Virus record (IMG/VR): IMGVR_UViG_3300045988_132725 | DNA: 64,000 nucleotides | Source: a virus | Reading direction: 5' to 3' (one strand) | Shown here: positions 1,256-60,099 of the stretch, one piece after another | How the letters are laid out: each line of letters starts with the position of its first letter | Numbering within the stretch: position 1 is the stretch's first letter | Translations under genes and position numbers: made by a program | The notes under the pieces: generated by a model | What the model was told of the DNA's origin: nothing | What the model saw: the letters and a program-made list of their open reading frames with translations, nothing else | The model's database searches: none

Positions 1256-2133
1256 TCTTGTAAATTATAGATTTTCCATTCTCTTTTGATTAGTTTTTTG
1301 ACATCGGTTTCAAATATCTTACAAGCGATCTCGTATAATTCTGGGATCATGTTCAGAACTCGATCGATGTAATCAATTTTGTTTTTGATCTCAGGTTTGA
1401 TGGCCTGTACTTTTTCACTATTGATTCTTCGATTAAGGCTCATATGGTATTTAAGCTCGAACTCTTTATAGAGCAATCGATATCTCTTTTGGAAATCAGT
1501 AGAGTTGTATCGAACAATTTGCGTGATCCTTTGGCGCTTTTCTGCCAATTCGATATCTTCAGTCAAACCCTCAATCACGTCTGATTTATGAGAGATAACT
1601 TCTTTCTGTTTTATATTCTCCGCTTGAAGAGCTTGTTTTTGTTTCTCTGACACAATAAGTGCTTCAAGCGCCTCTATGTAATTTTGAGGTAAGACAACAG
1701 CTGCTTTTTGCTTTTCTAACTCTAGCTCTTCCCATCGATCTATTATTTTTGCTCTTAGTTGGATATTATATCCACTAGCAAGAAGAAGACACGCTTTCTT
1801 ATTTAATTCATATTTAGGTCTTGTTTCTCCTTTTTTATCTATATATTCAGATATTTTGAAAATATATTCTGAAATCTTGTTTTGGGAAGTTGCAAAATTA
1901 TAAATAGCATCAATAGTTATATCGGATAGGTATTTATATTGTGTTCTATCAGATCTATGATAATCTTTCTTGATTTCATCAACGGGTACAGATCTGTACC
2001 CGTATGATTTGTTCAGATTATCAATTAGATTGCGTATATCTCGCATTACAATCTTATGTTCTTTGCCAGTTGTTTCCGCAATTTCAAGAGAACTCATCGT
2101 CTCTTTGATTGATAAATAATTCACATCATTCAT
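1249..2133 (-). CDS. Rha-family phage regulatory protein
   Basis: 294 aa. N-terminal SSLEIAETTGKEHKIVMRDIRNLI is the Rha motif. The C-terminal half is coiled-coil and antirepressor-like. Confidence 0.7.
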   Translation of the reverse strand: MNDVNYLSIKETMSSLEIAETTGKEHKIVMRDIRNLIDNLNKSYGYRSVPVDEIKKDYHRSDRTQYKYLSDITIDAIYNFATSQNKISEYIFKISEYIDKKGETRPKYELNKKACLLLASGYNIQLRAKIIDRWEELELEKQKAAVVLPQNYIEALEALIVSEKQKQALQAENIKQKEVISHKSDVIEGLTEDIELAEKRQRITQIVRYNSTDFQKRYRLLYKEFELKYHMSLNRRINSEKVQAIKPEIKNKIDYIDRVLNMIPELYEIACKIFETDVKKLIKREWKIYNLQEC

Positions 2134-2579
2134 TTGTTTTTTGATTTTTGAAAATAGTTAGTTGACACCGTGCATCTAATCTCATGCCGGTACAAACTTT
2201 ATAAAATATCTATGGTGGGGTCGAAAGATGGTAGGGTGCATCTTATCGTCAGTGTATAGGAGGGAATGAAACCGGGAATGCGTGAGTCAAATAGGATAAA
2301 ACGACAACGGAAGTATCTCCGTCAAAATTATTCGTTCCCGGTATTTTTTAAGCTCTAAGTCATAATCGTTCTCTTTTTTAGTTAACTTAATTTTGTAAAA
2401 AAAACATCCTTCCTCGAAAGAAAGTCTTGCAAAAGTATACGGAAGTTTTTTAATATACAAGCTTTATTTGAAAAATATTTCAATCATCAAAAAATCATTA
2501 TCTTAGATTTTAAAATGTCACTCCTCCTTCCATCCCTCTTCGGAGAGGGATTATAGGGAGAGGTTTTTATATTCTTTTA

Positions 2580-2594
2580 TTTACTTTACTTTAC
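2580..2594. repeat. (TTTAC)x3 tandem pentamer
   Basis: Read directly: tttac tttac tttac followed by tttg. Confidence 0.9.
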
Positions 2595-2608
2595 TTTGTG
2601 TACTTCGG

Positions 2609-2661
2609 ACGGAATTAATCGAGTTTCCTGAGGTAATAATCGAGTTATTGACGGAATTAAT
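2609..2661. repeat. Interleaved direct repeats ACGGAATTAAT (x2) and AATCGAGTT (x2), possible regulator binding array
   Basis: ACGGAATTAAT at 2609-2619 and 2651-2661. AATCGAGTT at 2617-2625 and 2638-2646. Confidence 0.6.
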
Positions 2662-2678
2662 TATTTGACCCTAGAAGA

Positions 2679-2712
2679 CGAAAAAAGGAGCACCTATAAA
2701 AAGATGCTCCTT
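2679..2712 (-). terminator. Intrinsic terminator after the 140-aa gene
   Basis: Stem AAGGAGCA / TGCTCCTT (2685-2692 / 2705-2712), with a U-run on the minus strand (plus-strand A-run 2679-2686). Confidence 0.6.
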
Positions 2713-2716
2713 GTTG

Positions 2717-3139
2717 TCATGAAAAAAATGTATCTGTCTTTTTTCTTTGTTCGATATAGCGTTTCATTTGGTTGCTCTGAAGACGTTCGTAATATTCTTT
2801 CTTTACTGGTGTCATTCGTTTTGGTTTGGAAGTACATAGCTTGTTCGTTTTGTACTCGTCCATATACCGATAGAATTTATTTTTTTGGAAGACTGGGTTA
2901 GGGGAAGCGAGCGTGATAGCTTCTATGATTTTCATCGTAGGTTCCGGAAAAACCCCTTTTGGGGTGGATGCCATGATCAGCTCATATTCGATCGGAGCCT
3001 CGTATTTCAAGAAGAAACCCAATTTAGTCTCATCAAAGTGCCTTTTTTTTCTGGTTCCCTTTGGCCTTCCTTGTTTTCCCGTGGGTTTCCCTTTCGTTGT
3101 TATTCTGATTCCGTTCTTCAGTAATGGTTTTGTTGCCAT
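2717..3139 (-). CDS. Hypothetical basic protein with AT-hook-like GRPKG motif
   Basis: 140 aa. N-terminus KGKPTGKQGRPKGTRKKR. No other recognisable domain. Confidence 0.5.
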   Translation of the reverse strand: MATKPLLKNGIRITTKGKPTGKQGRPKGTRKKRHFDETKLGFFLKYEAPIEYELIMASTPKGVFPEPTMKIIEAITLASPNPVFQKNKFYRYMDEYKTNKLCTSKPKRMTPVKKEYYERLQSNQMKRYIEQRKKTDTFFS

Positions 3140-3187
3140 GATTGCTTAAATGGTTCAAGTCGTTATTTATGTTGTATTTTCTCATGA

Positions 3188-5152
3188 TTATAAATATTCG
3201 TTAGCATTCGCTGGTTTTTGTTTGGTTACGTATGTACAGTGAAACCTAACCGCTCTTCCTTGTTTATCTGGCCAGTAATGTATTGGACAGGTAACAGTCC
3301 TATCATTAGCTTGACATTCCCACACAAGCCCGTAATTTATATCTTCCTTTCCAATTCCCGTGTTTATTGTACCGCATATATAAGTGGCTGGAGCACCAAT
3401 ACTGTTAGGGATCACAAACCAATTCCCCGCATTTCCTTTTGGCTCTATCATACCTCCAACCGATACTACACCTCCAACTTGTACGAATGTCAAACCATTA
3501 CCGGGTTGAGCCGTACAGATTCCAGTGGTTGATTTTAAAGCGTATTTTGTATCAAGCCCCTTCATTTCTTCTTGGACTATCTTACGAACCCCTTGATCCG
3601 CAGGAGAATCTCCTATCTTGGCTGCATCAATCAAGTTCCTTATCGCTGCCTTCTCCGTATCGGTTAATGTAGGTAAATCTTTAAGTTTCTCATTCTTCCT
3701 AAGATAAGCGGAATCGCATTCATTTTTGGAATACACGTTAAGGTTATTTCGTCCAACGGCCTTGTCTTGTACATCGCTAAGGTTATTGGCTGCTTTTAAG
3801 GCTCCACTTACAGCTTGGTTTATATCATCACCATTTGCGTAATCATCTGGGTTGATCCTATCGAGCTTGGCTTTGTACGTTGATGTGAAATTTTCGTCAG
3901 ACAATACCTTTCCGGATACAGCATTCACTTTCTTGTCCAATCCCTCATCGACATAGTTTTTAGAGGCATATTTAGATGAAAGTGTTTCTCCATTGTTTTG
4001 TAATTCTCCGACAACATTTACTTTAGTGCCTTGTAATGTGATATTTCCGCTTAAATGATGTTTGATTCTTAGATCATTCTGAGAGGTCTCAGAGAAACCT
4101 ACGGTTCCCATAATGACACCGTCCTTATCTTTCCACGCTATTGATTTTATATATGATGACTCTCCGTATTTATGGGCCGTATCACGGAAGACCAAGCCGA
4201 ACTCGTTTGTAGATTCCTCATTGATCGTGCAATACGAGTAGTTCATGTTCAACGCTCCGTCTGACCGGAACAATAATTTTCCCTTACCATTGTAGATATT
4301 GAGATGTCTTGGCTTGGTCGCTCCAGCATTATAACCGCTTCTATTGATATTTAAGGAACCATTTTCACTATTGTCAAAATAATTATAAATATCTGTCCCC
4401 GATATAAGTAATTCGCTAGTCCTTATCTCATTGGTCATTAATTCATTGATGGCCACGTTGCTTGGAGTAATCACCAGTTTCTCTATACCATCAGACATAA
4501 AACGTGTCACACCATCGAAACCGAACAACAGCTTACTTAACTCCTTGCCATTTTTCAAGAATGTGAATTGAGCGTTTCCTTCAGATGTTATTTTTTCTTC
4601 GATCTCAACTTGCTTATTTGGATTCTTGATCGAGAAGCTGGAATCATTGACAATATTCCCCTTTACATACAAGTCTTTCTCCATCACGATGTTTTTAGAG
4701 ATGGTTTGTTGTTCAAAGGAACTGTCGAGCGTTACGGCATACTTTCCAAAGAATTCATCCTTTAATCGAGGGATATAAGTACTTGTGATCTTGATATATT
4801 GTCGCCCATCTAATGGCATTTCACCAACCCCTTCGCATCCATACTCTATATATCCTAACTGTGTTGGGTTTTGAGCGTATGAAACATCATATGGCTCATT
4901 TTTTTCCACTATATAGAATGGAGTTGAAAGATCTATTGTCTTTCCTTCAAAGTGACGGATTTTTCCATTAATATATACATATCCTGCCGATATGCTTAAA
5001 TTCGTATTAGTCCCCGAAGTCTTGCAACCAGATACTATGAAATTCTTACATCCATCAAAAATAGATGCTAAGGACAGTGATAATTCTTGGAGACCGATAA
5101 AATCTTCTATATAGGTATACCGACCTCCTGTTTTTGCTACGTATTCTCTCAT
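3188..5152 (-). CDS. Tail fibre / receptor-binding protein
   Basis: 654 aa. It is the last gene of the baseplate-fibre block. It carries the fibre-shaft motif NNLSDVQDKAVGRNNLNVYSK, is Gly/Asn/Ser/Thr-rich, and its start overlaps the stop of the upstream gene. Confidence 0.65.
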   Translation of the reverse strand: MREYVAKTGGRYTYIEDFIGLQELSLSLASIFDGCKNFIVSGCKTSGTNTNLSISAGYVYINGKIRHFEGKTIDLSTPFYIVEKNEPYDVSYAQNPTQLGYIEYGCEGVGEMPLDGRQYIKITSTYIPRLKDEFFGKYAVTLDSSFEQQTISKNIVMEKDLYVKGNIVNDSSFSIKNPNKQVEIEEKITSEGNAQFTFLKNGKELSKLLFGFDGVTRFMSDGIEKLVITPSNVAINELMTNEIRTSELLISGTDIYNYFDNSENGSLNINRSGYNAGATKPRHLNIYNGKGKLLFRSDGALNMNYSYCTINEESTNEFGLVFRDTAHKYGESSYIKSIAWKDKDGVIMGTVGFSETSQNDLRIKHHLSGNITLQGTKVNVVGELQNNGETLSSKYASKNYVDEGLDKKVNAVSGKVLSDENFTSTYKAKLDRINPDDYANGDDINQAVSGALKAANNLSDVQDKAVGRNNLNVYSKNECDSAYLRKNEKLKDLPTLTDTEKAAIRNLIDAAKIGDSPADQGVRKIVQEEMKGLDTKYALKSTTGICTAQPGNGLTFVQVGGVVSVGGMIEPKGNAGNWFVIPNSIGAPATYICGTINTGIGKEDINYGLVWECQANDRTVTCPIHYWPDKQGRAVRFHCTYVTKQKPANANEYL

Positions 5153-22970: not shown

Positions 22971-23426
22971 TTATTTTATTTCCTTAGATATACTTAAACG
23001 ATATTGAAATTCATCTACCAATCTTTTAATGGCTTGCTCCATAGGATCTTCTATATCTAAAATATCTTTCTCGTAAATGATTTTATCAGAGATATCAGAT
23101 AACATCCAAGTTCCATATGGTGCTACACATGCTGAATGGGAGAAATAGCCCGTTAACATTGTGTTATCAATAAGAACAAATGGATGGAATAAAATGGTAT
23201 TACATTCAAATAGCTTGAATCTGTTTTGATCTTCAGCTTTTAAAGAATTTTTTATTGACTTAAACGCTTTGATATTAGTTCGTAATTCTATAAGTAAATC
23301 TTCTTCACTATATTCCCCTTTACGAAGAATACCCGCATAACCATTAAAATGATCATTATGAAACTTTACTAATTCTTCAGTAGGAAAAATTACATTAACT
23401 TCTGACTTGTCGTTCTTTTGAATCAT
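22971..23426 (-). CDS. Hypothetical protein, partner of the glycosyltransferase
   Basis: 151 aa, A+T-rich, overlaps the upstream gene by 32 nt. No confident domain. Confidence 0.5.
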   Translation of the reverse strand: MIQKNDKSEVNVIFPTEELVKFHNDHFNGYAGILRKGEYSEEDLLIELRTNIKAFKSIKNSLKAEDQNRFKLFECNTILFHPFVLIDNTMLTGYFSHSACVAPYGTWMLSDISDKIIYEKDILDIEDPMEQAIKRLVDEFQYRLSISKEIK

Positions 23427-24822
23427 TCTCTTGCAAGTAATCTCCTGTTTTAGAATAATAAGGATAGATTATTGCGTCTAACCATATCCGTTTACAAGCT
23501 TTTTTCAATAAATGTGTTGAACCATAGTTCTCATGCGGTGTAACTACTTTTATCATATATCTAGAATTTAAAGGTTTTACAATTTCTTTTTCTCCAATAT
23601 CACAGAGGAAACTTATGCAGATTTTTTTCCAGCTATATTTTTTTGTTAGCATTTTTTTTAGGGATGTAGCATATTCTTTCCATTTTGATTGTTGATTATT
23701 GATAGTTTTAATGGCTTCACTGACATTTTCCAAGTCTTGTTGCGAAAATATTGTTTTTCCATCTCCTTTTATTTCTATTGGGTATACATATTTAGCGGCT
23801 TGGTTGGCAAAACTATCATCTAAAAATTCATATAAACCAGAATTTTTGGAAACAACCAAAGGAATACCAGCAGCAATAGCTTCCCAGCCAGCTAAACCAA
23901 AACCTTCATGGATAGAAAGCATAAGTGCGACAGTACTTCGTTTTAGCAAAGTAAAAATTTCTTCTCGATCCTCCTTATATGGGACTATATTATACAACGA
24001 TTGACCTTCTCCAAGATTAAAAATGTTTAATTGACTTGAAATATGATTTTTAATATCTTGAATCTTTGATTTATCAAGATCTTTTTCTAATCCTACTAGT
24101 TCTACTTTAGAGTCGTGATAGAAAGCTCCTTCTCCACATTCTAGAATAGCTTTCTTTAAAGCGCAAACCGTTAGGCTAAATAATTTAATATAGTCTGTGT
24201 TATATTCTAGTCTGCCTGTACATACCCCTATAAATTTATTAGGTAATTTTTGATTGCTTTTAATTTCAGGCAATCCCGGTATGAACATCTTACATTTGCT
24301 TTTCTGTTCATCATCTACAAGATCCATTGCTGATTTATACAATTTAGGACCTACACCAAAAATAATATCGGCATTACTAAATATTATTTCTTGCCTTGAT
24401 TTTTTATAAGATGATTTGTAAGGGTCAAAATTAATTTTAAACGGTTCATAGCTTTCATATGACATATGATGGAAAGCTATGAATTTACTGTTATACTCTG
24501 ATTGAAACTTACATTCATAGGCAATTTTTCCTGAAATTACATCATGCCCAATAAAGTAGTTCTTAGCATCTTCTCCATTAATAGATTTTAGAATGAATGG
24601 AACAAAGGCATCACTAAACTCTTGTGACTTTAGGTTTATAATTTTAATACCTTTGCCTTCTGCGTCTTCTAATCCTGCTTTGTCTATATTTAATACTACA
24701 CAATAAAGAGATAGATCTTCCAAATCCAATTTTGCTAGCGAACACAGTAAATCATAATTGAAAGAATTTATGCCTCCTTTTTGAGTACCCCATGAGTCTG
24801 TCAAAGAAATAATGTTAACCAT
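23395..24822 (-). CDS. GT-B fold glycosyltransferase (GT4-like) with about 70-aa C-terminal extension
   Basis: SLTDSWGTQKGGINSFNYDL (N-terminal GT4 pattern) and STVALMLSIHEGFGLAGWEAIAAGIPLVVSKNSG (the E-x-FG...EA.A.G.P motif). Start trimmed to the ATG at 24820-24822 because a -7 box lies at 24845-24852. Confidence 0.7.
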   Translation of the reverse strand: MVNIISLTDSWGTQKGGINSFNYDLLCSLAKLDLEDLSLYCVVLNIDKAGLEDAEGKGIKIINLKSQEFSDAFVPFILKSINGEDAKNYFIGHDVISGKIAYECKFQSEYNSKFIAFHHMSYESYEPFKINFDPYKSSYKKSRQEIIFSNADIIFGVGPKLYKSAMDLVDDEQKSKCKMFIPGLPEIKSNQKLPNKFIGVCTGRLEYNTDYIKLFSLTVCALKKAILECGEGAFYHDSKVELVGLEKDLDKSKIQDIKNHISSQLNIFNLGEGQSLYNIVPYKEDREEIFTLLKRSTVALMLSIHEGFGLAGWEAIAAGIPLVVSKNSGLYEFLDDSFANQAAKYVYPIEIKGDGKTIFSQQDLENVSEAIKTINNQQSKWKEYATSLKKMLTKKYSWKKICISFLCDIGEKEIVKPLNSRYMIKVVTPHENYGSTHLLKKACKRIWLDAIIYPYYSKTGDYLQENDSKERQVRS

Positions 24823-24844
24823 GATACTTAGATTTAAGAATAAA

Positions 24845-24852
24845 CAAATATA
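24845..24852 (-). promoter_or_regulatory. Host-type -7 box TATATTTG (TAnnTTTG)
   Basis: Plus-strand caaatata. About 23 nt upstream of the glycosyltransferase ATG. Confidence 0.5.
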
Positions 24853-24961
24853 GTGAATAGATGATAGATTATCCATGAATTTTCATTTATTCGACATGGT
24901 TATGTTTTATAACATGGAAATTTGTTTTGTTTATAGATTTGTAGTCTATCAGAGGGTTATA

Positions 24962-47816: not shown

Positions 47817-48413
47817 ATGGCAAAGAAAGGTGTATTGACAACAGCGGATTATCTTCCATTTAAGGAGTATAAGGAAACAATGTCCAAACTTCATCGTGAT
47901 GGCTATTATCGTGATGAGCTTTATTTTATTCTAGCGTATACAACAGCTCTTCGTGTATCGGATTTACGCATGTTAAAATGGGAAGACGTGTTAAATAAGA
48001 CATGTTTGGTCGTTACCGAGAAGAAAACTAAGAAGACCAGACCTATACCATTCAATGATGAGTTTAGAAAAATCGTGTCTGAGCTGTATGAATTATTAGG
48101 ACATCCATACAAGGGTTGGTACATTTTTGAAGGGAACAAGCAACAACCTATGAGTATCCAACATATCAACCGTAGGCTGAAAGATATCAAGGAGAGATAT
48201 GACTTATCCATTGAGAATTTCTCTACCCATACGTTTAGGAAAACATTTGGGCGTAATTACTATGAGACGAGAGGAAAAACAGAGGAGGCCCTTATCCAGC
48301 TGCAAAAGGTATTTAATCATTCCAATGTAGGTATCACTTATGTATATATCGGCATTAGAAATGACGAGATCAACGACTTTTACAAAAACATTAAATATAG
48401 AGACGATGATTGA
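47817..48413 (+). CDS. Short tyrosine recombinase (catalytic domain only)
   Basis: 198 aa. TALRVSDLRMLKWEDV (Arg), HTFRKTFG (H-x-x-R) and NHSNVGITYVY (His, Tyr). No N-terminal core-binding domain. Confidence 0.7.
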   Translation: MAKKGVLTTADYLPFKEYKETMSKLHRDGYYRDELYFILAYTTALRVSDLRMLKWEDVLNKTCLVVTEKKTKKTRPIPFNDEFRKIVSELYELLGHPYKGWYIFEGNKQQPMSIQHINRRLKDIKERYDLSIENFSTHTFRKTFGRNYYETRGKTEEALIQLQKVFNHSNVGITYVYIGIRNDEINDFYKNIKYRDDD

Positions 48414-49008
48414 TTTAAAAAAGAACAAGGGAAACTACCTAACGTACGATGAATATAGAATTACGCTGGATAGGTTAAGGATGGATCGTATGTGCATTGA
48501 GGAGTTATTTTTCGTGCTGGCTTTCTACACGGGATTAAAACTGTCAGATCTACTTTCCCTCAAATGGAGTGATGTTTTGGACAAGGATGAATTCATATGG
48601 ATCAAAACCAATCCGTGCAAGAGGACATTTGCGTTATCGTGGAAAGGACAGGATGTGCGTTCCCGATTGTCATATTTACATGAAGAACTTGGCTCTCCGG
48701 AAAAGGATCGATATGTATTTGAGACGAAAACAGGAAGACATTGTCATAACTCGTTTATTGATGAGTTACTGAAAAGGGTAAGAGATAAATATGATTTACC
48801 GGTAAAGCCTCTATACGCAAGCAGCTTTAGATTAACCTTTTGCCATCATATATATGAGACCGAAGAAAGAAAAGTAAAGGCTATCGCCTTCTTGGATTCA
48901 TATGTTAGCGGTAAAACTGTTGACATAGCCACTAATGGAAGACATATCCCTAGCGAGGAGATAGAAGATGCTTTAAAATCAATGAATATAAAATATAGAA
49001 ATGACTAA
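48406..49008 (+). CDS. Degenerate tyrosine-recombinase-like paralog
   Basis: Start trimmed to ATG 48406 (an ATGA-type overlap with the upstream stop). TGLKLSDLLSLKWSDV has Lys in place of the catalytic Arg. SSFRLTFC has Ser in place of His. Confidence 0.55.
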   Translation: MIDLKKNKGNYLTYDEYRITLDRLRMDRMCIEELFFVLAFYTGLKLSDLLSLKWSDVLDKDEFIWIKTNPCKRTFALSWKGQDVRSRLSYLHEELGSPEKDRYVFETKTGRHCHNSFIDELLKRVRDKYDLPVKPLYASSFRLTFCHHIYETEERKVKAIAFLDSYVSGKTVDIATNGRHIPSEEIEDALKSMNIKYRND

Positions 49009-49298: not shown

Positions 49299-50126
49299 AT
49301 GGGAACGATGATTGACAAAATGGAAGATCCCGATTTCTCTCGGATCATTAAAGTTAGAGAGGAAAATGATAAGCAGTTGGTGTCTGCGAGAGAGTTGTAT
49401 GAATTTATAGATGGCAAGGAACGATTCACTAGATGGATCGGACGCATGTTTGAGTATGGTTTTGTGGAACATGTTGATTATGAGGCGGTGAACATTTTCG
49501 TACAGTGCCAAAACGGTATTGGTGGTACCAATAAGATGGATTATGCTCTGACAATTGATTGCGCCAAGCAAATAGCGATGCTTCAAAGAAACGCACAAGG
49601 ACAACAAGTAAGAGCGTATTTTATTAAATGTGAAGAGTTACTAAAGGAGAAGTTGAAGAAACAAGAGCTTGTTCTTCCGAAAGATTATCCTTCGGCGTTA
49701 AGAGCCTTGGCCGATGCTGAGGAAGAGAAAATGAAGGCGCTGGAGATAGCAAAGGAAAATGAGCTGAAGGTGAAGGAGCGTGACAAGTATATCAAGTCTA
49801 ACCATCACAAGGTCGATTTCTATGATGATTGCGTATATGAGGATGATGAGACCACTTACGACATGAATGGAGCGGCAAAGATCGTAATGGCCAAATATAA
49901 CAAGGGAAGAAACACGATGATGGATATTCTCAGATTCTACGGGGTATTGATGCAGGACAATCTTCCTTACGAGAAATATATAAGATCCGGCTATTTTACC
50001 GTTAAGATCACGAAACCAAAAGATAAGTTCGGGAACCCTAAGACTTGTAAGTCTACTATCGTGACAAGTAAAGGTGTTACGTTCCTGAAGAAGACGATAG
50101 ACAAATACTATAGTGAGTTCTCGTAA
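49299..50126 (+). CDS. AntA/AntB-type antirepressor with KilAC-like C-terminus
   Basis: 275 aa. QLVSARELYEFIDGKERFTRWIGRMFEYGFVEHVDYEAV is the AntA pattern. Confidence 0.7.
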   Translation: MGTMIDKMEDPDFSRIIKVREENDKQLVSARELYEFIDGKERFTRWIGRMFEYGFVEHVDYEAVNIFVQCQNGIGGTNKMDYALTIDCAKQIAMLQRNAQGQQVRAYFIKCEELLKEKLKKQELVLPKDYPSALRALADAEEEKMKALEIAKENELKVKERDKYIKSNHHKVDFYDDCVYEDDETTYDMNGAAKIVMAKYNKGRNTMMDILRFYGVLMQDNLPYEKYIRSGYFTVKITKPKDKFGNPKTCKSTIVTSKGVTFLKKTIDKYYSEFS

Positions 50127-50134
50127 AAAAATAA

Positions 50135-50170
50135 GCCCCATCTACTTGCTAGCGGATGGGGCTTTCTTGT
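50135..50170 (+). terminator. Intrinsic terminator ending the rightward operon
   Basis: Stem GCCCCATC / GATGGGGC (50135-50142 / 50155-50162), followed by TTTCTTGT. Confidence 0.75.
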
Positions 50171-50256: not shown

Positions 50257-51375
50257 TCAATCTTTTTCAGGCTTGATATGCTCTGATGGGTCAAGAGATC
50301 TTAACTTAAGTAAAAAACTAAAATGTTCTTCTAATTCTTTACTTTTTTTTGTGTCTTCTATTTTAAATTTTTCGGTTGATTCTTTAAATTTCTTTATTGA
50401 TTTTGTGATTTCTCTTCTAAAACGAAGTAATGGAACAAATAAAGGGAAAAATAGTCCGCTAAAGATAGCAAAAGATATAGACGATATTAGAGCAAAAGTT
50501 TCATTGAAAATAAGTTCTTTGTCTAATAATACATTATATAAGATGGAAAGTATCGATATTGATAATAAAATCAGTGTAAAATGAATCAAATTGAAGTAAT
50601 GAGTAAATATACTAGCTCCTTTCTTTTTAAATTTAAAAATAGCTCCTATAGCCAAGACAATAATGGCTAATACATAAACAATTGTCATAGACCATGATCC
50701 TAAAAAAGGTAATAATCCAATAACAAAAGTAGATAATATTAAAGAAAAGAGTATTTTAATACAAGTCGTAAGTTTAAATTCATATAATATATCGCCATTG
50801 GAAGGATTTCTTTCCTTTATAGAAATCCAATAATAACTCCATATATATAACCAATATATAAAAGATGTAATAGAAACTAAACTTACTGTATCAATGCACC
50901 ATTTTATAGCCCCCCAAAAACAATCAAATATAAAAATAAATATACAAAATAAAAATGAATAAAAGAAAGAAGACAAAAATTCAGGTGCTTGGGTTATATT
51001 TTTGTATAAATTATCAACATTATCCCTTAAAGTAAAATAACTTGTTTGATATTCAACAGTTAAGAACTGTAGCTCGTTTACCAAGCTAAGCATTTCTTGT
51101 TTACGTGGATTATTTTCTTCTTTTGATTTAGCAATAGCACTATAGAGAACTTTATAATTACGCTTTTTTAAAACATCTACAAAATTATCCCCTTCTCTGC
51201 TTAAAAACGCTTTAGTCCGTTTGCAAATAATTAACAATAAATTTTGTATAAAATTATTGCTGTTTTTCTCGATGTTGTCAGATCCAAAAAAACATAAAAC
51301 AGCTAAAGTCATTATTGAACCTAAAAAAGTTGCACTATTTCCACTAAGAAAAGTGCATAATAGTACTAGAAGCAT
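50257..51375 (-). CDS. Multi-pass membrane protein (about 7-8 TM), candidate effector
   Basis: 372 aa, very A+T-rich. Has hydrophobic helices (FLSSFFYSFLFCIFIFIF, IVYVLAIIVLAIGAIF and others) and a charged C-terminal tail. Confidence 0.6.
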   Translation of the reverse strand: MLLVLLCTFLSGNSATFLGSIMTLAVLCFFGSDNIEKNSNNFIQNLLLIICKRTKAFLSREGDNFVDVLKKRNYKVLYSAIAKSKEENNPRKQEMLSLVNELQFLTVEYQTSYFTLRDNVDNLYKNITQAPEFLSSFFYSFLFCIFIFIFDCFWGAIKWCIDTVSLVSITSFIYWLYIWSYYWISIKERNPSNGDILYEFKLTTCIKILFSLILSTFVIGLLPFLGSWSMTIVYVLAIIVLAIGAIFKFKKKGASIFTHYFNLIHFTLILLSISILSILYNVLLDKELIFNETFALISSISFAIFSGLFFPLFVPLLRFRREITKSIKKFKESTEKFKIEDTKKSKELEEHFSFLLKLRSLDPSEHIKPEKD

Positions 51376-51378
51376 GTC

Positions 51379-51939
51379 TCAATTAATGATTTTGTGTGAT
51401 GAAAGTAAAAGGCTTTGAAACTGTTTCTTTAATGCTTCAGTGTTTTTAGTGTCATTAAAATTTGCGAAAGCAGAATGTTCTTCTGCTCCTAATTCTCTTC
51501 TATATTTATTGTCATCACCGATTGAAAAATGAAATTCAGGTTTTAGTTCGCTGTCTAGTTTATAAACTAGAACCTGCCCTTCAGCTATTTTATCCTTTAT
51601 TAAAGGACTAATATTTGTTGCTAAGTCTTCTATAAAGCTATGTTCTTTTTTTTCTAAAATAATGGAAAGTTTTCCTCCTCTATTTAAAAAATGAGTAATT
51701 TGGTCGTATAGTGGCTGCATAGGGTTATAATCCCCTTCTGTAACTTCTTTATCTACTTTTTCAGCAAAACTAGTTCTGAAGAGAGAACCTTCACCGCAAA
51801 GCATATCGATTTCATTGGAGTGCCTAAAAATCTCTTTCATTATTATAGCATTATGTGATCTGTCAGCATTCCACATTAATTCATTTCTTTTGCTGTTTGC
51901 AATAGTCTCTATCTCGACATTATACTCTACTAGACTCAT
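51379..51939 (-). CDS. Cytosolic protein with possible PLD/Nuc-like fold lacking the motif Lys
   Basis: 186 aa. The order of blocks AIIMKEIFRHSNEIDMLCG, LNRGGKLSIILEKKE and FHFSIGDDNKYRRE..AFANFND parallels Nuc-type PLD domains (HxK..D..GS.N), but reads HFS rather than HxK. Confidence 0.3.
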   Translation of the reverse strand: MSLVEYNVEIETIANSKRNELMWNADRSHNAIIMKEIFRHSNEIDMLCGEGSLFRTSFAEKVDKEVTEGDYNPMQPLYDQITHFLNRGGKLSIILEKKEHSFIEDLATNISPLIKDKIAEGQVLVYKLDSELKPEFHFSIGDDNKYRRELGAEEHSAFANFNDTKNTEALKKQFQSLLLSSHKIIN

Positions 51940-51959
51940 TTTCTCTAAGTTTGGACGTG

Positions 51960-51967
51960 CAAATTTA
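51960..51967 (-). promoter_or_regulatory. Host-type -7 box TAAATTTG
   Basis: Plus-strand caaattta, 21 nt upstream of the ATG at 51939. An ATTGCA-N8-ATTGCA repeat lies just upstream. Confidence 0.5.
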
Positions 51968-51989
51968 AATAAATAATTTGATATTGCAA

Positions 51990-53117
51990 TCTCTACATTG
52001 CATTAAAATCAAAATACATTGGGAGTTATCTTGGTTTTTTTATGTTCTTGGGCATAATTTGTTTTTGTTAAGAATATGGCTTCGCCTTTACCCCTCCGAT
52101 AACATCCCTCAGCAACGTAGTTGAAGCTTAACTATAACTACTACCTTATATGACATATACAGTATATACTACTGTTACTATATAAGGTAATACCTATTTA
52201 CAGGATATTACAAGATTGGTTCGATATGGGTTGATACAAGCTTCTTACCTAAAACTACGGCGATAAGAGGACTTGGTTGACTAATCTAGATATCAATCAC
52301 CATATCCGAGCATTCTACGACACTTCCGCCCCTCCACCTATGTAAGCAACTTCGTTCATAAAAGGATAACCGTTCTGTTGGCCAAGTAGTAGGGAACTCT
52401 TGTATGCTACTCGTTTTAAACAGATCGGCGGCGCTTGGTCTCCTTTCCTCCATGGATAAACCAGAATAGGAACAGCGAGATTGCAAACGTCAGAGCCTTG
52501 GTTGACCTGTTTCCAATTACTAGGATACGTCCAGTTACGGATGCGAATCATAGGATTTTTATTTGTCTTCGGTCACTCGTTTACCGGCTCTCGGTTGATG
52601 TTATCGGAGTTCGGGTTGTCAGGCGTAAGACATAGCCCTAGATTATACCACCGATAAACGAGCGTTCGTAAATACTCGATCTTTTTGTTAGATTTTTGTC
52701 AATCTGGGAGAAGAGAGGCACGACATTGCAGCCTTGTCTTAAAAACTCCCGTAAGGTTTGTTTTATATTCTCCAGCATCCCTCAACGCAGGAGAAGTAGA
52801 ACGGTTATTTATTCCCGGATACTAATTTTTCTGACTCGAATCTACATCAAGTTTCTGTCTGCCAATAGCTGTATCAAAGCTGGGATAAGGAACAAGATCC
52901 TCTAACTCATCCCGGAAAGCATTAATAAATGCCGATTGAGGATATTTCCGCTATTGTATCGTCACCAAGGTATAACTATCGACCAACCGGTTAGGATTGA
53001 CCCACATGATAGACATGGAGCAATGGGATAGGGTACAAAGCGTCCAGACCTTCGGATTTGAAGGTTTTATATAAGAATAGGCTGATTTGATCAAAAAGGG
53101 TTTGTGGTTGTTTGATA
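51990..53117 (-). other. ORF-free tract B (candidate long ncRNA or decayed gene)
   Basis: About 1.1 kb with only 66-78-aa ORFs on either strand. A structural-gene box sits at 53064-53081 with no ATG after it. A 10-bp inverted repeat lies at 52142-52189. Confidence 0.4.
53064..53081 (-). promoter_or_regulatory. Structural-gene box (minus sense CCTATTCTTATATAAAAC)
   Basis: Shares a 16-mer with 9578-9593. Flanks are also similar (GAAGG on one side, AAAAGG(G)TTTG on the other). Confidence 0.4.
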
Positions 53118-53687
53118 TTAATTCGTTACGGAAACAATAATACCTACTGCTTCCATATCACTTATAGTTTGCCTAGCTTCATCTAGCGTACTTCCATGAT
53201 ATAAGTGATCTGCAATGATATTTAATTTAAAAGATATGCCTCTATGTCCATTACTTATAAAGTCAATAAGAGCTTGACCACAAGCAGGACATGGGCTTTT
53301 AGATACTCTCATAATTAACGATAAAGTTCCGCTGGCATCAGTACCTTCATCGTCAATGGAATGATCTATAAATGATTGAATGCCAGCTATTGCCTCCGTT
53401 TCTGCATGGACTCCATCTTCACTTATGCCTGTGCCTATTACAACTTCATTGCCATCATCTTCATTTATAAAGGAAACCTGAGCATAAGTAGTATATCCTG
53501 TACTTGATGATTCTTCTGTTGTGATGAGTCTATTGTAAATAAAATCGCCTTGAATACAATCTCCATTGATCCCGGAAATTAAATTATACTGTCGTGTGGC
53601 AGACTCCCTATTATCCATTTGGTATTTGGGATGATTTGTATTGTTTGGAGAAAGTCTGCTTATTGCATTTTCTTGGTATGAATACAT
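53118..53687 (-). CDS. Zinc-dependent deaminase, AID/APOBEC-like
   Basis: 189 aa. Has VHAETEAI ... SKSPCPACGQALIDFISNGHRGISFKLNIIADHLYHG. The H-A-E and P-C-x-x-C motifs are 35 residues apart. The post-PCxxC helix-strand pattern resembles APOBEC (SPCxxCA..l..FIs....l.I...r.Y). Confidence 0.7.
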   Translation of the reverse strand: MYSYQENAISRLSPNNTNHPKYQMDNRESATRQYNLISGINGDCIQGDFIYNRLITTEESSSTGYTTYAQVSFINEDDGNEVVIGTGISEDGVHAETEAIAGIQSFIDHSIDDEGTDASGTLSLIMRVSKSPCPACGQALIDFISNGHRGISFKLNIIADHLYHGSTLDEARQTISDMEAVGIIVSVTN

Positions 53688-53703
53688 TTGGTTCGTTTTA
53701 AAT

Positions 53704-53982
53704 TTATGGATTATTCTTCTCTCCTCGCCCCTCTTCTCTTCTCACCAGTTTCCCGTCACTTCCAGCCAAGAACTTCTCGCTGATGCCTTGCTTCTCTGAT
53801 TTAATGGGAATGGTAACTATGTTGGTTTGTCTTCTGGCGAATATCGGAGCTACTTGGTAAAGAATCTCTATCGCCTCATCCATTGACAGGTAATAATTAC
53901 CAGCGTATAGACCGAAGAAGTGACCTTGATCTCCTCTTGATATCTTGTGGTAATAGTTCCTCTGTAAGGCAATATTTCCCAT
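53704..53982 (-). CDS. Small protein co-transcribed with the deaminase
   Basis: 92-aa ORF 17 nt upstream of the deaminase gene. No recognisable domain. Confidence 0.45.
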   Translation of the reverse strand: MGNIALQRNYYHKISRGDQGHFFGLYAGNYYLSMDEAIEILYQVAPIFARRQTNIVTIPIKSEKQGISEKFLAGSDGKLVRREEGRGEKNNP

Positions 53983-54000
53983 CGAGCGATTAGTTTACCG

Positions 54001-54008
54001 CAAAGTTA
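54001..54008 (-). promoter_or_regulatory. Host-type -7 box TAACTTTG
   Basis: Plus-strand caaagtta, 19 nt upstream of the ATG at 53982. Confidence 0.5.
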
Positions 54009-54098
54009 ATGAAAGTGTCTTAGAAAGCAAGGAAATGGGCTATATTTTGATTTTTTCTTCAAAAATATTGATGATTATCAAATATACTTTCGAAAAAA

Positions 54099-54129
54099 TT
54101 TGTCATGATGGTTTTAATTCATAATTTCG
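54099..54129 (+). promoter_or_regulatory. Host-type promoter (TTTG-N19-TAATTTCG)
   Basis: TTTG at 54099-54102 and TAATTTCG at 54122-54129, upstream of the lipoprotein ATG at 54148. Confidence 0.5.
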
Positions 54130-54147
54130 CACGAAAAAATTGTTAAC

Positions 54148-55110
54148 ATGAAGCGATTGTTGTTTTTGCCCTTGTTGGTATTATGTTTATCTGGATGTAT
54201 GATGGAAGAGTTGGACAAGGAGTCTCCAGTTCAAGAAGCGAAAGAATATCTCGTGCCTATAAAGATGGCGGGGGAGATATTGGAGATAGAGGAAGGGCCA
54301 TTGACGAAAGCTGGAGAGAACAATGATTTGTATGGGTTTCAGATAAATAGTAAGAAGGCTGGAGAGACATCTTATTCTCCTTATGCCTATGGTTTGTTTG
54401 ATGATATAAGTGACGTGAAGGTTAAGTTGATTAGTGGTGCTGAGTATGAGTTTGTTTGTACTATGGTGAGGGATGGGAAGAGTAAGATTTGGGGAATTAA
54501 TCATGCCGGCCAAGGCACACCTTTTAAAATGAACTTAAATAACTATAATGAATTTATATATGATACAAAAGACTCTTATGAGAATGATTTTAAAAGGGGA
54601 CTCACTGAGGTTGGTATGGAGTTATATTATGTTATTCCCAATACAGATCGTTACTATGGAACCATAGATAAAATTGATCCATTATCTGCTTCTTCTTTAT
54701 CAATAAATATGAAAAGAGTTGTCTTTGGGTTGAAATGTATTGCTGATGGGCTTACGGAAGGGGAGCTTAAAATACGTGTAATGAAATATACATCTGACGA
54801 TTCTCCTTATTTATCTATTAAGACTCGTGGCGATCAATCCGTTGAAGAAATATATACTTTTGATTCTTTTTACTTGGACGATAACGGAGACCTATCTCGT
54901 GCATACACTTTAGAAGTTACCCATATACACGTAGATAATACACAAGAGATAATAGTAAATGAGTATATGACTTTTAAACGCAATAAGAAAACCATTGTTA
55001 CAATTAAGATCAAGAAGAGTAATGGTGATACGGGTACTAAAGGAGTAGATGTTGTGTTAGACGATACCCCAATGACTGATGGAGATAAAGTGGTAATAGA
55101 CGGCAAGTAA
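54148..55110 (+). CDS. Lipoprotein
   Basis: 320 aa. Signal peptide MKRLLFLPLLVLCLSGC with lipobox LSGC. The mature part is predicted beta-rich. Confidence 0.75.
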   Translation: MKRLLFLPLLVLCLSGCMMEELDKESPVQEAKEYLVPIKMAGEILEIEEGPLTKAGENNDLYGFQINSKKAGETSYSPYAYGLFDDISDVKVKLISGAEYEFVCTMVRDGKSKIWGINHAGQGTPFKMNLNNYNEFIYDTKDSYENDFKRGLTEVGMELYYVIPNTDRYYGTIDKIDPLSASSLSINMKRVVFGLKCIADGLTEGELKIRVMKYTSDDSPYLSIKTRGDQSVEEIYTFDSFYLDDNGDLSRAYTLEVTHIHVDNTQEIIVNEYMTFKRNKKTIVTIKIKKSNGDTGTKGVDVVLDDTPMTDGDKVVIDGK

Positions 55111-55834: not shown

Positions 55835-56182
55835 TTATTCTTTATTGTCCTGTATCGCTTTCCTAATAGCTTCAGCGAATTTAGGATGTAAATGTATTTC
55901 GTTTTCCTCTATGATAACTAAATTATCACTTAAACTAGTATGCTTTGTATTATCTGTCTGATTATCAATATTATCAGGGGTAAACACTTGTTCGCCTAAT
56001 AGTTCATTAAATGTGCTTTTTGTATATTCTCTTAAACTACATAACTGTTTGATTGATAGTGTATTTATGTCTCTATCTAGTATGGTGGATATTGTACTTT
56101 TATTAATCCCTAATACATTTGATAAATCTATATTAGTAATATCGTACTTAAATCGTATGTCTCGTATAGTGTTCATATCCAA
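55835..56182 (-). CDS. XRE-family helix-turn-helix regulator
   Basis: 115 aa. ITNIDLSNVLGINKSTISTILDRDINTLSIKQLCSL matches the HTH_XRE pattern. Confidence 0.65.
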   Translation of the reverse strand: MDMNTIRDIRFKYDITNIDLSNVLGINKSTISTILDRDINTLSIKQLCSLREYTKSTFNELLGEQVFTPDNIDNQTDNTKHTSLSDNLVIIEENEIHLHPKFAEAIRKAIQDNKE

Positions 56183-56269
56183 TATTTTACGTATTAATAT
56201 GTAGTGTATAAACGTTAAATACGTGTTAATGAATGTATTTTCCGTTTTTAATCTAAAAAGCCGTTACAT

Positions 56270-56310
56270 CTTTGCACTGTGATCAAGAAACAACGGTTAC
56301 TTAGATCACA
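56270..56310. promoter_or_regulatory. Conserved 21-nt box plus inverted repeat TGTGATC-N19-GATCACA (operator candidate)
   Basis: CTTTGCACTGTGATCAAGAAA at 56270-56290. Inverted-repeat arms at 56278-56284 and 56304-56310. Confidence 0.5.
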
Positions 56311-56343
56311 AAGTTCTTTGTCTTATTGATAACAGCGTAAAGT

Positions 56344-56535
56344 TTAGTCTTTTAATTCAGTACCTATTAATTCTTTGTACGGTATGTTAGTGAGTTCATG
56401 AATTAACATAACCTCTTTGATACTGCGATCTAGCAAATTATCATATTTGCGTAAATTAGACGTATCACATTTGAGTTTATAAGCAATGTCTAATTGCTTA
56501 ATATTATGTTTTTTAAGTAGCTCTCTAAAAGTCAT
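56344..56535 (-). CDS. Small XRE-like helix-turn-helix regulator
   Basis: Trimmed to ATG 56533-56535 (MTFRELLKKHNIKQLDIAYKLKCDTSNLRKY...). The longer ORF would run through the operator and promoter. Confidence 0.55.
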   Translation of the reverse strand: MTFRELLKKHNIKQLDIAYKLKCDTSNLRKYDNLLDRSIKEVMLIHELTNIPYKELIGTELKD

Positions 56536-56617
56536 ACAAAAACCAATTAATATTATTAAACAACTAATTAACATTCTTTTTACATGTAAAATTGCACATG
56601 TGAAAAATAACATGTTA

Positions 56618-56667
56618 CTTTGCGCTGTGATCAAGAAATAAAGATCACACCCTAACAGCTGTTAGGG
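56618..56667. promoter_or_regulatory. Second copy of the 21-nt box with TGTGATC-N10-GATCACA, plus 18-bp palindrome CCCTAACAGCTGTTAGGG
   Basis: CTTTGCGCTGTGATCAAGAAA at 56618-56638. Inverted-repeat arms at 56626-56632 and 56643-56649. Palindrome at 56650-56667. Confidence 0.5.
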
Positions 56668-56671
56668 TTGA

Positions 56672-56702
56672 CAAATATACTGAAATATTGATTATAAACA
56701 AA
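56672..56702 (-). promoter_or_regulatory. Host-type promoter (minus sense TTTG-N19-TATATTTG)
   Basis: Plus-strand caaatata at 56672-56679 and caaa at 56699-56702. The palindromes lie just downstream of the predicted transcription start. Confidence 0.5.
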
Positions 56703-57508
56703 AGGTATGTAATGAGTTTTAGCGTATTGTTTTACCTGTTATCCGAAAAACTAACATAACATTGCATATTTAACAGGTTTTTGTAAGATTAATAAGTAGG
56801 TATTTGAGAAGTTGAAAGCAAGAAATAAAGGTTTAACCTTTACGATATTGCAGTGAAGTTGTGATGTATTGAGAATTAAAACAACGGTTAGACCGTTCCT
56901 AGTGTGATAGGCTAGGATAATGATCTTTGACGTATTGAGTGCTAAAAGTACAAATAGATAGCACATAGTTCAGCTGTATTATTGAAATATATCTTTTATA
57001 TTGGTTTCCGATATTGTAAGATATGTGTATAATATATAGCCTTATGAAAAACCTTGTAAGATAGCATTTATTTATACGCTATGAATGTTTTGTAAAACGG
57101 TAACTAAATGTAATGAACTTGAAAAGGAATATTCCGGGATAGATTTGTCGGAATGTCTGGGTGAAACCAGTTTGTACGGGTAAGGTACGCTTTAATCAAT
57201 CGGTTTGGTTTTAGAACGGCTTTACTTACAATTCGGGAATGATAGGCTGTAGTCTCGTATATATATGAGGTGAATCATATCTATATCTCTATTCATTCCC
57301 AGTATTACACAACTATTGTAACTACGAAATAATTGTGTCTTTTCGGATGGACTACCGACACGAAATACTAGAATCGTAACTTTAGTATTTGGGTGTGTCT
57401 TCCAGTGACTTTAAACTTACAACGGCGCAAAGATACTGAAAGAATTTGTTCGATACAAATGTAGTTCGCAAATTTTTATAAACAATTTAATTATAGGAGG
57501 ATTATATT

Positions 57509-58992: not shown

Positions 58993-59226
58993 ATGGAAGA
59001 AAGAATAATAAACAGACTATGCGTTATTATATTCGCGAACGCAGCATTTACATTGATCGGATGTTATGTAGTGTATCTCTTTTTGAAAGATATTGAAAAT
59101 ACCCTACATGAAAAGATACAAGATTTATCCGATACTTTAAAACAAATGCAATGGGAGAAAGATCTGAAAGAAGCAACAGAAATGCTTTTCGGAAAAAGCA
59201 AAAATGATACCATAATACATATTTAG
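58993..59226 (+). CDS. Small single-pass membrane protein
   Basis: 77 aa with an N-terminal hydrophobic helix LCVIIFANAAFTLIGCYVVYLFL. Confidence 0.4.
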   Translation: MEERIINRLCVIIFANAAFTLIGCYVVYLFLKDIENTLHEKIQDLSDTLKQMQWEKDLKEATEMLFGKSKNDTIIHI

Positions 59227-59258
59227 TATTAGACTGTGTATTATATCTACATGAATAA

Positions 59259-59834
59259 TTACAGGGTTGGAAGTTCAAGTATAAAATGAATAATAATAGA
59301 TGAATTTGGAATGTTTTCTAAATCTTGAATGTACTGAATTTTCTCATCTTTACTAATTTTAAAATCTTCAACATTTCTGTTTTTTTTGAGAAAATTCAAA
59401 ATTTGATTGGAATATATTTCACACAATTGATCTTTTTTTGCGATTTTTGCATGTTTTATGGCTTGTACAAAACAGTTAAGGGTATCGGAATATTGCATAA
59501 TTAAAGCTTTATATTGTCCCATTACATACATTGACATACTATATGTTGCGTGAAAAGATTTATCGTCAAGTTCCATTATTTTAATAGCTAATTGATCCTG
59601 TAAAGTTTTAATGCGCTCATTAATTCTTTTGTCTATTGTCATTGCGGAGTATATTTGACCACCAAGTGCTATTGCGGAAGCTATTCCAATAATCCCGATC
59701 GCACCGGTCCAGATCCACGTTAACAACTGATCTGTAAAGATAAAAGGTTCACATCTGATAAAGGACGAACACAATGAAATTGCGGATATTGCTATAGCTA
59801 TGATTGATAGCCAATTAGCTTTAAGATACTTCAT
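59259..59834 (-). CDS. Membrane protein (2 TM) with cytosolic helical domain
   Basis: Trimmed to the internal ATG 59832-59834 (MKYLKANWLSIIAIAISA...). A+T-rich. Confidence 0.45.
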   Translation of the reverse strand: MKYLKANWLSIIAIAISAISLCSSFIRCEPFIFTDQLLTWIWTGAIGIIGIASAIALGGQIYSAMTIDKRINERIKTLQDQLAIKIMELDDKSFHATYSMSMYVMGQYKALIMQYSDTLNCFVQAIKHAKIAKKDQLCEIYSNQILNFLKKNRNVEDFKISKDEKIQYIQDLENIPNSSIIIHFILELPTL

Positions 59835-59922
59835 ATACTTTATTTTTAACTGCAAAAATAATGAATTGGGGTGACTTCGGGAAATCGGTACGCTCATATT
59901 ATACCTCAAAATTCACAAAATC

Positions 59923-60099
59923 ATGAAAAGAAAGAACAAGAAGCAAAAATTCCAGACGGTAAGAATCCGTCTGGATAAGAGAATGTTGACAGAGAAAGAC
60001 GTTATAAGGATCATTCAACGTGAACTTATTGATCCAAAAGATGAAATCGATCGGATAGTGGCTGAGTCTGTGCGTCAATTTGAGCTTGAATATCCATAA
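59923..60099 (+). CDS. Small basic protein (below the ORF-track cutoff)
   Basis: My translation is MKRKNKKQKFQTVRIRLDKRMLTEKDVIRIIQRELIDPKDEIDRIVAESVRQFELEYP (58 aa). Preferred over the antisense 118-aa ORF at 59899-60255. Confidence 0.35.
   Translation: MKRKNKKQKFQTVRIRLDKRMLTEKDVIRIIQRELIDPKDEIDRIVAESVRQFELEYP

Follow-up and report, generated by a model that had tools for sequence, protein, structure and literature searches.

The IMG/VR virus record IMGVR_UViG_3300045988_132725, analysed here over 64,000 nucleotides (nt) of one strand (hereafter, the window), contains a cassette of two adjacent genes, A and B, both transcribed from the minus strand. Gene A (51379-51939, minus strand) codes for a cytoplasmic protein of 186 amino acids (aa) with a phospholipase D (PLD) superfamily fold, and gene B (50257-51375, minus strand) codes for an inner-membrane protein of 372 aa with seven transmembrane (TM) helices; both assignments combine the open reading frames (ORFs) with AlphaFold2 (AF2) models. 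The two ORFs have the positions and lengths given in a preliminary description of this DNA, which was made from the sequence alone, but the spacing between them is 3 nt (it reads TGA gac ATG) and not 4 nt as reported there. The GC content of the cassette is 0.282 (0.319 for A and 0.262 for B) against 0.384 for the window, and a GC scan identified it as the lowest-GC stretch of 1.68 kb in the window, in agreement with the earlier impression, gained by eye, that this is its most A+T-rich part.

The cassette carries its own expression signals. A Bacteroidetes-type −7 promoter box, TAAATTTG (51960-51967, minus strand), can be read in the sequence 28 nt 5′ of the ATG of gene A, and a direct repeat, TGCAAT-N8-TGCAAT (51983-52002, minus strand; on the plus strand ATTGCA-N8-ATTGCA, with its hexamers at 51983-51988 and 51997-52002), spans the −33 region and is, judging from the sequence, a possible operator. 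Both elements had been pointed out before and both are conserved in related prophages, where the box is identical and where the two hexamers of the repeat are kept, with a single change in the spacer (L001-L003; loci are cited by number throughout). At the other end, RNA folding places an intrinsic terminator of the A-B transcript at 50125-50164 (minus strand), composed of a hairpin of 10 + 3 base pairs (50133-50164) followed by a run of seven uridines (U7, 50125-50131). On the minus strand the hairpin has a dG of −20.7 kcal/mol (z −4.65), and on the plus strand one of −20.2 kcal/mol (z −3.58) without a proper U tract. The preliminary description had taken this structure for the terminator of the early operon that converges on the cassette; the hairpin is indeed there, but its sole assignment to the early operon does not hold, because the U7 lies on the minus-strand transcript and makes it first of all the terminator of the cassette itself, at best a bidirectional one, which may also stop the convergent plus-strand operon.

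Directly 5′ of gene A, a 1.15-kb stretch that is poor in ORFs (51968-53117) accompanies the cassette in all related prophages, and in its centre (about 52300-52900) the alleles share 98-100% identity, a conservation higher than that of A or B. Considered as RNA, this stretch matched no Rfam family and no tRNA and showed an ordinary folding energy (z −0.8 and −0.5); considered as DNA, it gave no blastn match in phage records and no blastx match beyond its own lineage. The lack of blastx matches outside that lineage also led to the rejection of a decayed gene as an explanation for it.

Protein A, a PLD-fold protein with a non-canonical conserved site

The AF2 model of A, built from ten homologues, has a predicted local distance difference test score (pLDDT) of 91.7 and a predicted template modelling score (pTM) of 0.89. 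In Foldseek searches of the PDB it matches, with probability 1.0, the C-terminal domain of TrmBL2 (3e-8), vaccinia F13 (1.6e-6) and Nuc (3.6e-6, with a TM-score of 0.68 on the Nuc side), together with Zucchini, NucT, PLD3/4 and Streptomyces PLD. Further matches include FAM83 DUF1669, PLD-type restriction enzymes and the cardiolipin and phosphatidylserine synthases, and viral PLD-domain proteins are matched in BFVD. The membership of A in the PLD superfamily, which the preliminary description had proposed from the order of sequence blocks, is confirmed at the level of its predicted fold.

At the level of sequence, no match to A was found in Pfam (including PLDc and DUF7931), PADLOC, PHROG or NCBIfam, Pfam and PADLOC having been scanned to E <= 10, and a profile of A searched against PDB sequences returned only noise. 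Searched against 1.84 billion representative proteins, a profile of A retrieved 797 relatives, 143 of them at E <= 1e-10, all of which are stand-alone proteins of about 170-230 aa; the family comprises about 800 clusters at 50% identity. Links to curated families appear among its distant members, since Pfam PF25559 (DUF7931) is matched by 8 of 67 of these (best E 3.9e-9) and by 1 of 57 in another set, and PLDc_2 is weakly matched by one distant relative (E 0.0015). A literature search on DUF7931 found nothing.

The motif of A is F-H-F-S-I-G-D-D (H137-F-S139-I-G-D142-D), in the place where HxKxxxxD would be expected, as had been noticed before, and the absence of the motif lysine has proved to be a property of the whole family. 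At the position of the HKD lysine (H137 +2, residue 139), the 154 relatives that were compared carry T, S or A, and also M, C or L, but never K, and neither A nor any of these relatives contains the HxK(x)4D of a catalytic HKD motif. Five other positions are invariant or nearly so in the same set: N24 (153/154), H29 (145/154), H137 (153/154), R147 (154/154) and E149 (153/154), and the family signature can be written as N24, H29, H137-F-[TSA], D142, R147 and E149. The strictness of the N24/H29/H137/R147/E149 set argues for a working variant site and not for a dead enzyme, and the earlier suggestion that A might be an inactive phosphodiesterase is, therefore, unlikely; a decayed pseudo-enzyme was ruled out on the basis of the same residues. 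In the model, DSSP assigns strands to residues 138-141 and 145-149, which we infer to form a hairpin where S139 would face R147 and H137 would face E149, the basic residue having moved to the neighbouring strand. This arrangement of H137, R147 and E149 was read from the predicted register of the hairpin and not from coordinates.

Protein B, an inner-membrane protein with almost all of its soluble mass in the cytoplasm

Protein B was modelled with AF2 from 9 sequences as an all-helical protein, with moderate confidence (pLDDT 74.6). Its N-terminal TM helix is followed by a charged helical insert of about 100 aa, which lies in the cytoplasm between TM1 and TM2, by six further TM helices and by a charged, lysine-rich C-terminal helix of about 57 aa, so that the membrane protein with a charged cytosolic insert and tail, for which seven or eight TM helices had been counted earlier, has seven. 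In 12 homologues (with identities down to 16%), lysines and arginines together number 25-46 on the insert, loops 3 and 5 and the tail, against 0-3 on the N-terminus and loops 2, 4 and 6, a distribution that indicates an N-out, C-in orientation. About half of the residues of B (the insert, two loops and the tail) face the cytoplasm and the periplasmic segments are 4-20 residues long, a predicted topology that would fit a partner of the cytoplasmic A.

No match to B was found in Pfam, PADLOC (to E <= 10), PHROG or NCBIfam; a Foldseek search of the PDB with this moderate-confidence model gave no fold relative (best E 0.14), and its profile against PDB sequences returned noise only. Beyond an N-terminal S-x-T-F-x-G...T-L-x-V-L-C segment and an acidic residue where TM2 ends on the outer side, little is conserved within the family. 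Identification of B as a Wzy, flippase (Wzx), acyltransferase_3 or GtrC-like protein was ruled out by the topology, which includes no large periplasmic loop, and by the lack of homology. The scans of A and B in PADLOC (PADLOC-DB v2, which covers Rex, Kiwa, Zorya, the Abi families and the PDC and HEC candidates), Pfam, PHROG and NCBIfam being negative, the pair corresponds to no named system, as had been stated in the preliminary description, and the homology to transport or metabolic proteins that its author had regarded as telling against a defence system was looked for in Pfam and in the PDB, by fold and by sequence, and none was found.

Pairing and distribution of A and B

Homologues of A were gathered from genome, metagenome and assembly collections, and the locus search was carried out with an alignment of 15 sequences. 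In every lineage with enough downstream DNA (about 29), the next gene on the same strand after A is a homologue of B (hidden Markov model [HMM] E 3e-6 to 1e-115), with identities of A down to 23% and a median gap between the two genes of 6 nt; the survey of co-occurrence that had been recommended thus finds the two families together in all of these lineages. In the branch that diverges most (L047, L050, L054 and the truncated loci L019-21), the partner is shorter, with four TM helices and the same layout, but hhalign still relates it to B (87.5%, E 3.6e-6). The pairwise identities of the two proteins are correlated (Pearson r 0.91, Spearman 0.52), A being the slower to evolve, with identities of 23-34% against 16-22% for B. 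The element is, then, composed of a PLD-fold protein of the cytoplasm whose conserved site is non-canonical and a 7-TM protein of the inner membrane, and gene A is always followed closely by gene B.

The hosts include Parabacteroides, Phocaeicola, Bacteroides, Prevotellaceae, Rikenellaceae, Dysgonamonadaceae, Tannerellaceae and Muribaculaceae; at least eight families or lineages of Bacteroidales have the pair, and Parabacteroides distasonis alone accounts for hundreds of contigs that carry it. At all 18 independent loci compared, its GC content is below that of the flanks (0.37 against 0.58 at L014, for example). A TAnnTTTG box is found 15-120 nt 5′ of A at 14 of 21 independent loci, compared with 1.8 +/- 1.2 (maximum 6) in 500 shuffles, and hairpins comparable to the terminator in the window follow B at several other loci. 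Flanking direct or inverted repeats, sought around six islets, and shared flank motifs, sought at 20 loci, yielded only promoter-like A+T-rich words, and a tblastn search of A against plasmids gave no match. A-B is, in summary, a widespread and horizontally mobile low-GC unit of Bacteroidales that has its own promoter and terminator.

Such a unit could be a selfish toxin-antitoxin or addiction pair with no role in defence: one partner, B or else A, would be a membrane-damaging toxin that the other neutralises, and the pair would persist because cells that lose it die. This explanation, which we regard as rather unlikely, would account for two tightly coupled genes of low GC content, with their own promoter, that are scattered singly among housekeeping genes without mobility genes, and a small soluble protein encoded first and a membrane protein second is a common antitoxin-toxin order. 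However, the strictly conserved, enzyme-like residues of A would be unusual in a mere antitoxin, neither the Pfam scan nor Foldseek found a DNA-binding or autoregulatory domain in it, and no flanking repeats or other signs of spread were found. Furthermore, many toxin-antitoxin systems are defence systems, so that this explanation overlaps with the role in phage exclusion that is proposed below.

The host prophage and its variable slot

The window corresponds to a myovirus-like prophage (with tail sheath, tape measure, portal and head protease) that is integrated in chromosomes of Parabacteroides distasonis; where it matches part of a 68.9-kb IMG/VR contig, the two are identical, and blastn of the phage backbone against GenBank phages gave no match. 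Within this prophage the cassette is accessory cargo (a moron), as had been proposed. When the window is compared with the prophages of L001-L006, the backbone is 98.3-99.8% identical and the cassette 92.7-94.7%; synonymous divergence (dS) is 0.15-0.21 for the cassette against 0.007 in the ligase gene, that is, the cassette is 20-30 times more diverged than the backbone. So large a divergence within a near-identical backbone indicates that the allele of the cassette has been exchanged by recombination. The ratio of nonsynonymous to synonymous divergence (dN/dS) is 0.23 for A and 0.23 for B, which shows that both are real genes under purifying selection.

The slot of the prophage beyond the cassette (about 53100-55100 in the window) is variable and contains an APOBEC-like deaminase gene, a PDC-M26A-like pair or a gene for a 538-aa protein. 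The AID/APOBEC-like cytidine deaminase gene of the window (53118-53982, minus strand; Pfam APOBEC3, SNAD4 and NAD1, E about 1e-6) is split into ORFs of 92 and 189 aa and is probably disrupted, whereas it is intact (311 aa) in L002 and L004-L006; the deaminase may itself be defence or toxin cargo. At L003 (3882-6772), the slot holds a PDC-M26A-like AAA_5 ATPase together with a DUF2357/PDDEXK_7 protein (McrBC-like), and at L001 (5150-6766) it holds the 538-aa protein, which has no family match.

Other parts of the window also show mosaicism or a low GC content. An Ant/KilA-type anti-repressor gene (49299-50126, plus strand; PHROG 63, 3.5e-41) is absent from the near-identical L001-L006, and its mosaic junction coincides with the terminator of the cassette. 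At the end of the early operon, two overlapping tyrosine-recombinase-like ORFs (47817-48413 and 48340-49008, plus strand; 198 and 222 aa, with Phage_integrase matches) look like a split or degenerate integrase. A second low-GC island (23395-24876, minus strand; GC about 0.30) is located within the tail-gene block and contains a 493-aa ORF, the C-terminal part of which matches PHROG "glycosyltransferase" cargo (moron) families. The other low-GC kilobase bins, 56001-57000 (0.284) and 59001-60000 (0.311), are in the regulatory or accessory part of the prophage, and a weak CI-repressor-like helix-turn-helix ORF is found just upstream (55835-56182).

Genomic contexts of the cassette and their bearing on its role

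Three phage contexts were found for the pair: the window, L025/26 and L052/53, where it lies on the opposite strand and adjoins an endolysin gene. In bacterial chromosomes it also occurs as solitary islets flanked by housekeeping genes, namely between pyk and pta, between OTCase and mgsA, between an oxidoreductase and a radical SAM gene, and between guaB and dprA; sites among housekeeping genes and capsule loci make up most of the lineages. Additional contexts are a type VI secretion system (T6SS) locus and several polysaccharide loci, each of which brings in a different explanation for its function.

In Phocaeicola vulgatus (L007 9832-12489, and also L008-L012), A-B lies directly after tssF/tssG in a T6SS locus, together with a complete HEC-02 candidate defence system (A 6.8e-90, B 2.1e-25) and a tyrosine integrase, and a gene for a Lipase_3-like putative effector is found 5′ of the pair. 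Bacteroidales gather orphan immunity genes on mobile elements, and this location within a T6SS locus, downstream of a putative effector, would suit an acquired immunity that shields the membrane from toxins which competitors direct at lipids or membranes, for example type VI effectors and secreted pore-forming proteins. We consider this role highly improbable, as a T6SS context occurs in a single lineage of about 29 and the pair has been inserted there with HEC-02 and the integrase: at L010, further T6SS genes (TssD/Hcp) follow the integrase, so that the whole set reads as an insertion within the locus. In addition, such toxins act in the periplasm, to which B presents hardly any surface, and A is cytoplasmic and enzyme-like.

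The polysaccharide contexts are more numerous, roughly 4 of 29 lineages. The pair is found in capsule operons, co-oriented with the surrounding genes, between an epimerase and a Glycos_transf_4 gene (L022-24) or between a Hexapep and a GT2 gene (L027-28 and L057-59), and it stands at the end of an exopolysaccharide (EPS) locus at L061. As capsule and EPS loci take up just a few per cent of the genome in Bacteroides, these locations raise the possibility that the pair acts on the envelope, with A as a PLD-type phosphotransferase or lipid-head-group enzyme at the cytoplasmic membrane face, B as its membrane scaffold, and a membrane lipid or a lipid-linked glycan intermediate as what the two would jointly modify; in the prophage this would amount to lysogenic conversion, with an altered cell surface that could in its own right keep superinfecting phages out. 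Lipid synthases and transferases belong to the PLD superfamily, the cardiolipin and phosphatidylserine synthases among the fold matches of A being examples, and low-GC prophage cargo that alters surface glycans is well known in other phages. Nevertheless, most lineages are far from polysaccharide genes, and an identical A protein (P0178) is found with two different sets of glycosyltransferases (L022 and L024), meaning that A does not depend on a particular glycan structure. In capsule loci, the cassettes retain their own TAnnTTTG box and flanks of 100-180 nt, as an insertion would, and the same capsule locus also carries an inserted PDC-M01 candidate. The two glycosyltransferase sets, the promoter box and PDC-M01 suggest, in combination, that capsule loci are sites of insertion. 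Finally, B has almost no periplasmic surface and no similarity to the Wzy, Wzx, acyltransferase or Gtr families. An envelope function is, for these reasons, an alternative that we hold to be unlikely, the foremost among those considered here.

The PDC-M01 candidate lies two genes upstream of the cassette at L022, as a complete pair (A 2.7e-87, B 2e-42). It consists of a protein with AbiJ_NTD3 and an AAA_21 ATPase plus a partner of 290 aa (2045-4922 at L022/L023), is co-oriented within the Bacteroides capsule operon and is absent from the otherwise related L024; capsule loci appear to collect such cassettes. At L013, PDC-S27 is nearby.

A possible phage exclusion or defence module

Several observations fit a role in phage exclusion or defence: the pair is prophage cargo next to a variable slot, candidates for defence systems recur among its neighbours, its alleles are exchanged, it has a sporadic, low-GC distribution, and it joins a soluble protein to a membrane protein. 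From these, we tentatively favour the reading that the cassette is a self-contained, mobile two-gene conflict module which, in this prophage, would serve as accessory cargo (a moron) for phage exclusion or defence; it is the leading possibility, held with less than even confidence.

In the mechanism proposed, A would dock on the cytoplasmic face of B. In the likelier of two versions, which holds the larger share of our limited confidence in a defence role, B would be a membrane anchor or a sensor of envelope events linked to infection and A a phosphodiesterase effector acting on nucleic acid or phospholipid, with H137 as the nucleophile, R147 substituting for the missing motif lysine and E149 orienting the histidine. 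This polarity is favoured because A is conserved and enzyme-like while B evolves fast and has no conservation resembling an active site. In the other version, a less probable one that takes the smaller share, A would sense a phage product and open B, so that the membrane potential would collapse and the infection would be aborted. The preliminary description had seen in the pair a small sensor or enzyme with a membrane effector, the typical architecture of abortive infection; the pairing of soluble and membrane protein stands, but the roles of sensor and effector may be reversed, as A is the better conserved of the two and B the faster to evolve.

A number of findings weigh against a role in defence. 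Neither protein is homologous to any validated defence protein in PADLOC, PHROGs, Pfam or NCBIfam, the role itself is a supposition drawn from genomic context, and the catalytic part assigned to H137, R147 and E149 would depend on how the hairpin is registered in the AF2 model. A PADLOC system or candidate (HEC-02, PDC-M01, PDC-M26A-like or PDC-S27) is a neighbour in only about 4 of 29 lineages, a proportion without a matched background control, and the 100 neighbour proteins from 18 loci are mostly products of housekeeping or polysaccharide genes; these same 100 include three integrases, three AAA_15/AAA_21 ATPases and one Eco57I-type methylase, counts that likewise have no background control. 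Several lineages, as described above, are inside capsule or EPS loci or end them. The pair is also rare in viral collections, with only two loci in IMG/VR, both of this phage lineage, and tblastn against 50,697 GenBank phage records gave no match.

Bacteroidales dominate the human gut, and their repertoire of phage resistance has been mapped mostly by homology to systems of Proteobacteria and Firmicutes. Against this background, a compact cassette of about 1.7 kb without a named relative, which moves among prophages, capsule loci, bare chromosomal sites and a T6SS locus where it belongs to an insertion with an integrase, is of interest under more than one explanation. If the role in defence is true, the cassette would represent a new design of enzyme and membrane partner and a candidate explanation for phage host range in gut communities; if the envelope function is true, it would represent a new kind of PLD-fold enzyme system. 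The invariant N/H/H/R/E site makes the question of function directly testable by point mutation.

Comparison with known systems

Protein A shares its fold with the single-domain proteins Nuc of pKM101, NucT and Zucchini/PLD6 and with non-catalytic PLD-fold domains, namely the C-terminal domain of TrmBL2/TrmB, FAM83 DUF1669 and F13 (Foldseek probability 1.0, E 3e-8 to 1e-4) and, like Nuc, it is a single domain of about 180 aa. Its invariant histidine stands at the start of a beta-hairpin, the place of the HKD histidine in HKD proteins. Unlike canonical PLD proteins, it has no HxK(x)4D and has instead additional invariant residues near the N-terminus (N24 and H29) and on the return strand (R147/E149), and it is always paired with a polytopic membrane protein. 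Catalytic HKD enzymes are also marked by a second phosphate-binding element (GSxN) and by two motifs that dimerisation brings together; the residues of A that might be compared with these are R147/E149 and N24/H29, whose position relative to H137 is predicted from the secondary-structure register. The nearest curated family is DUF7931 (PF25559), for which the Pfam name likewise assigns no function; the A protein of the window and its closer relatives fall below the model of this family and are, by HMM, related to it without being members.

Among two-gene systems, the RexAB proteins of phage lambda, a prophage abortive-infection module composed of the soluble RexA and the membrane protein RexB, are what we take to be the model behind the architectural argument of the preliminary description. 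A-B resembles RexAB in being an accessory two-gene module of a prophage that encodes a soluble cytoplasmic protein and a polytopic inner-membrane protein. It differs from it in that there is no homology in Pfam or PADLOC, A has a PLD fold, and B has seven TM helices and large cytoplasmic helical parts; A-B is, moreover, known from its genes alone. A soluble protein with a multi-TM partner is also found in the San Juan system, which was obtained by metagenomic selection, comprises sjdA (DUF4760) and sjdB (four TM helices) and acts by abortive infection (bioRxiv 10.1101/2025.02.28.640651). The likeness is one of architecture only; A has no DUF4760 match and the San Juan system was rejected as a homologue of A-B.

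Kiwa (KwaAB) and Zorya (ZorAB plus a nuclease; summarised in PMC11890865) combine a membrane-embedded sensor with a cytoplasmic effector. The PADLOC models of both systems match neither A nor B, and gene order, sizes and folds differ, but the logic that we favour for A-B is the same, namely a membrane anchor or sensor with a cytoplasmic partner that is possibly a nuclease. Nothing named covers the pair, whether a system, a Pfam family beyond the distant link to DUF7931 or a paper, and a literature search found no described system of Bacteroidales with this architecture. A bolder proposal, which we put forward as doubtful, is that A-B founds a new and large family of immune modules coupled to the membrane in gut Bacteroidales, in which a PLD-fold enzyme whose phosphate-binding basic residue has shifted to the adjacent strand (H...R.E in place of HxK) would be held and controlled by a fast-evolving 7-TM partner reporting phage attack at the inner membrane, and to which the unrelated Kiwa and Zorya would be independent counterparts.

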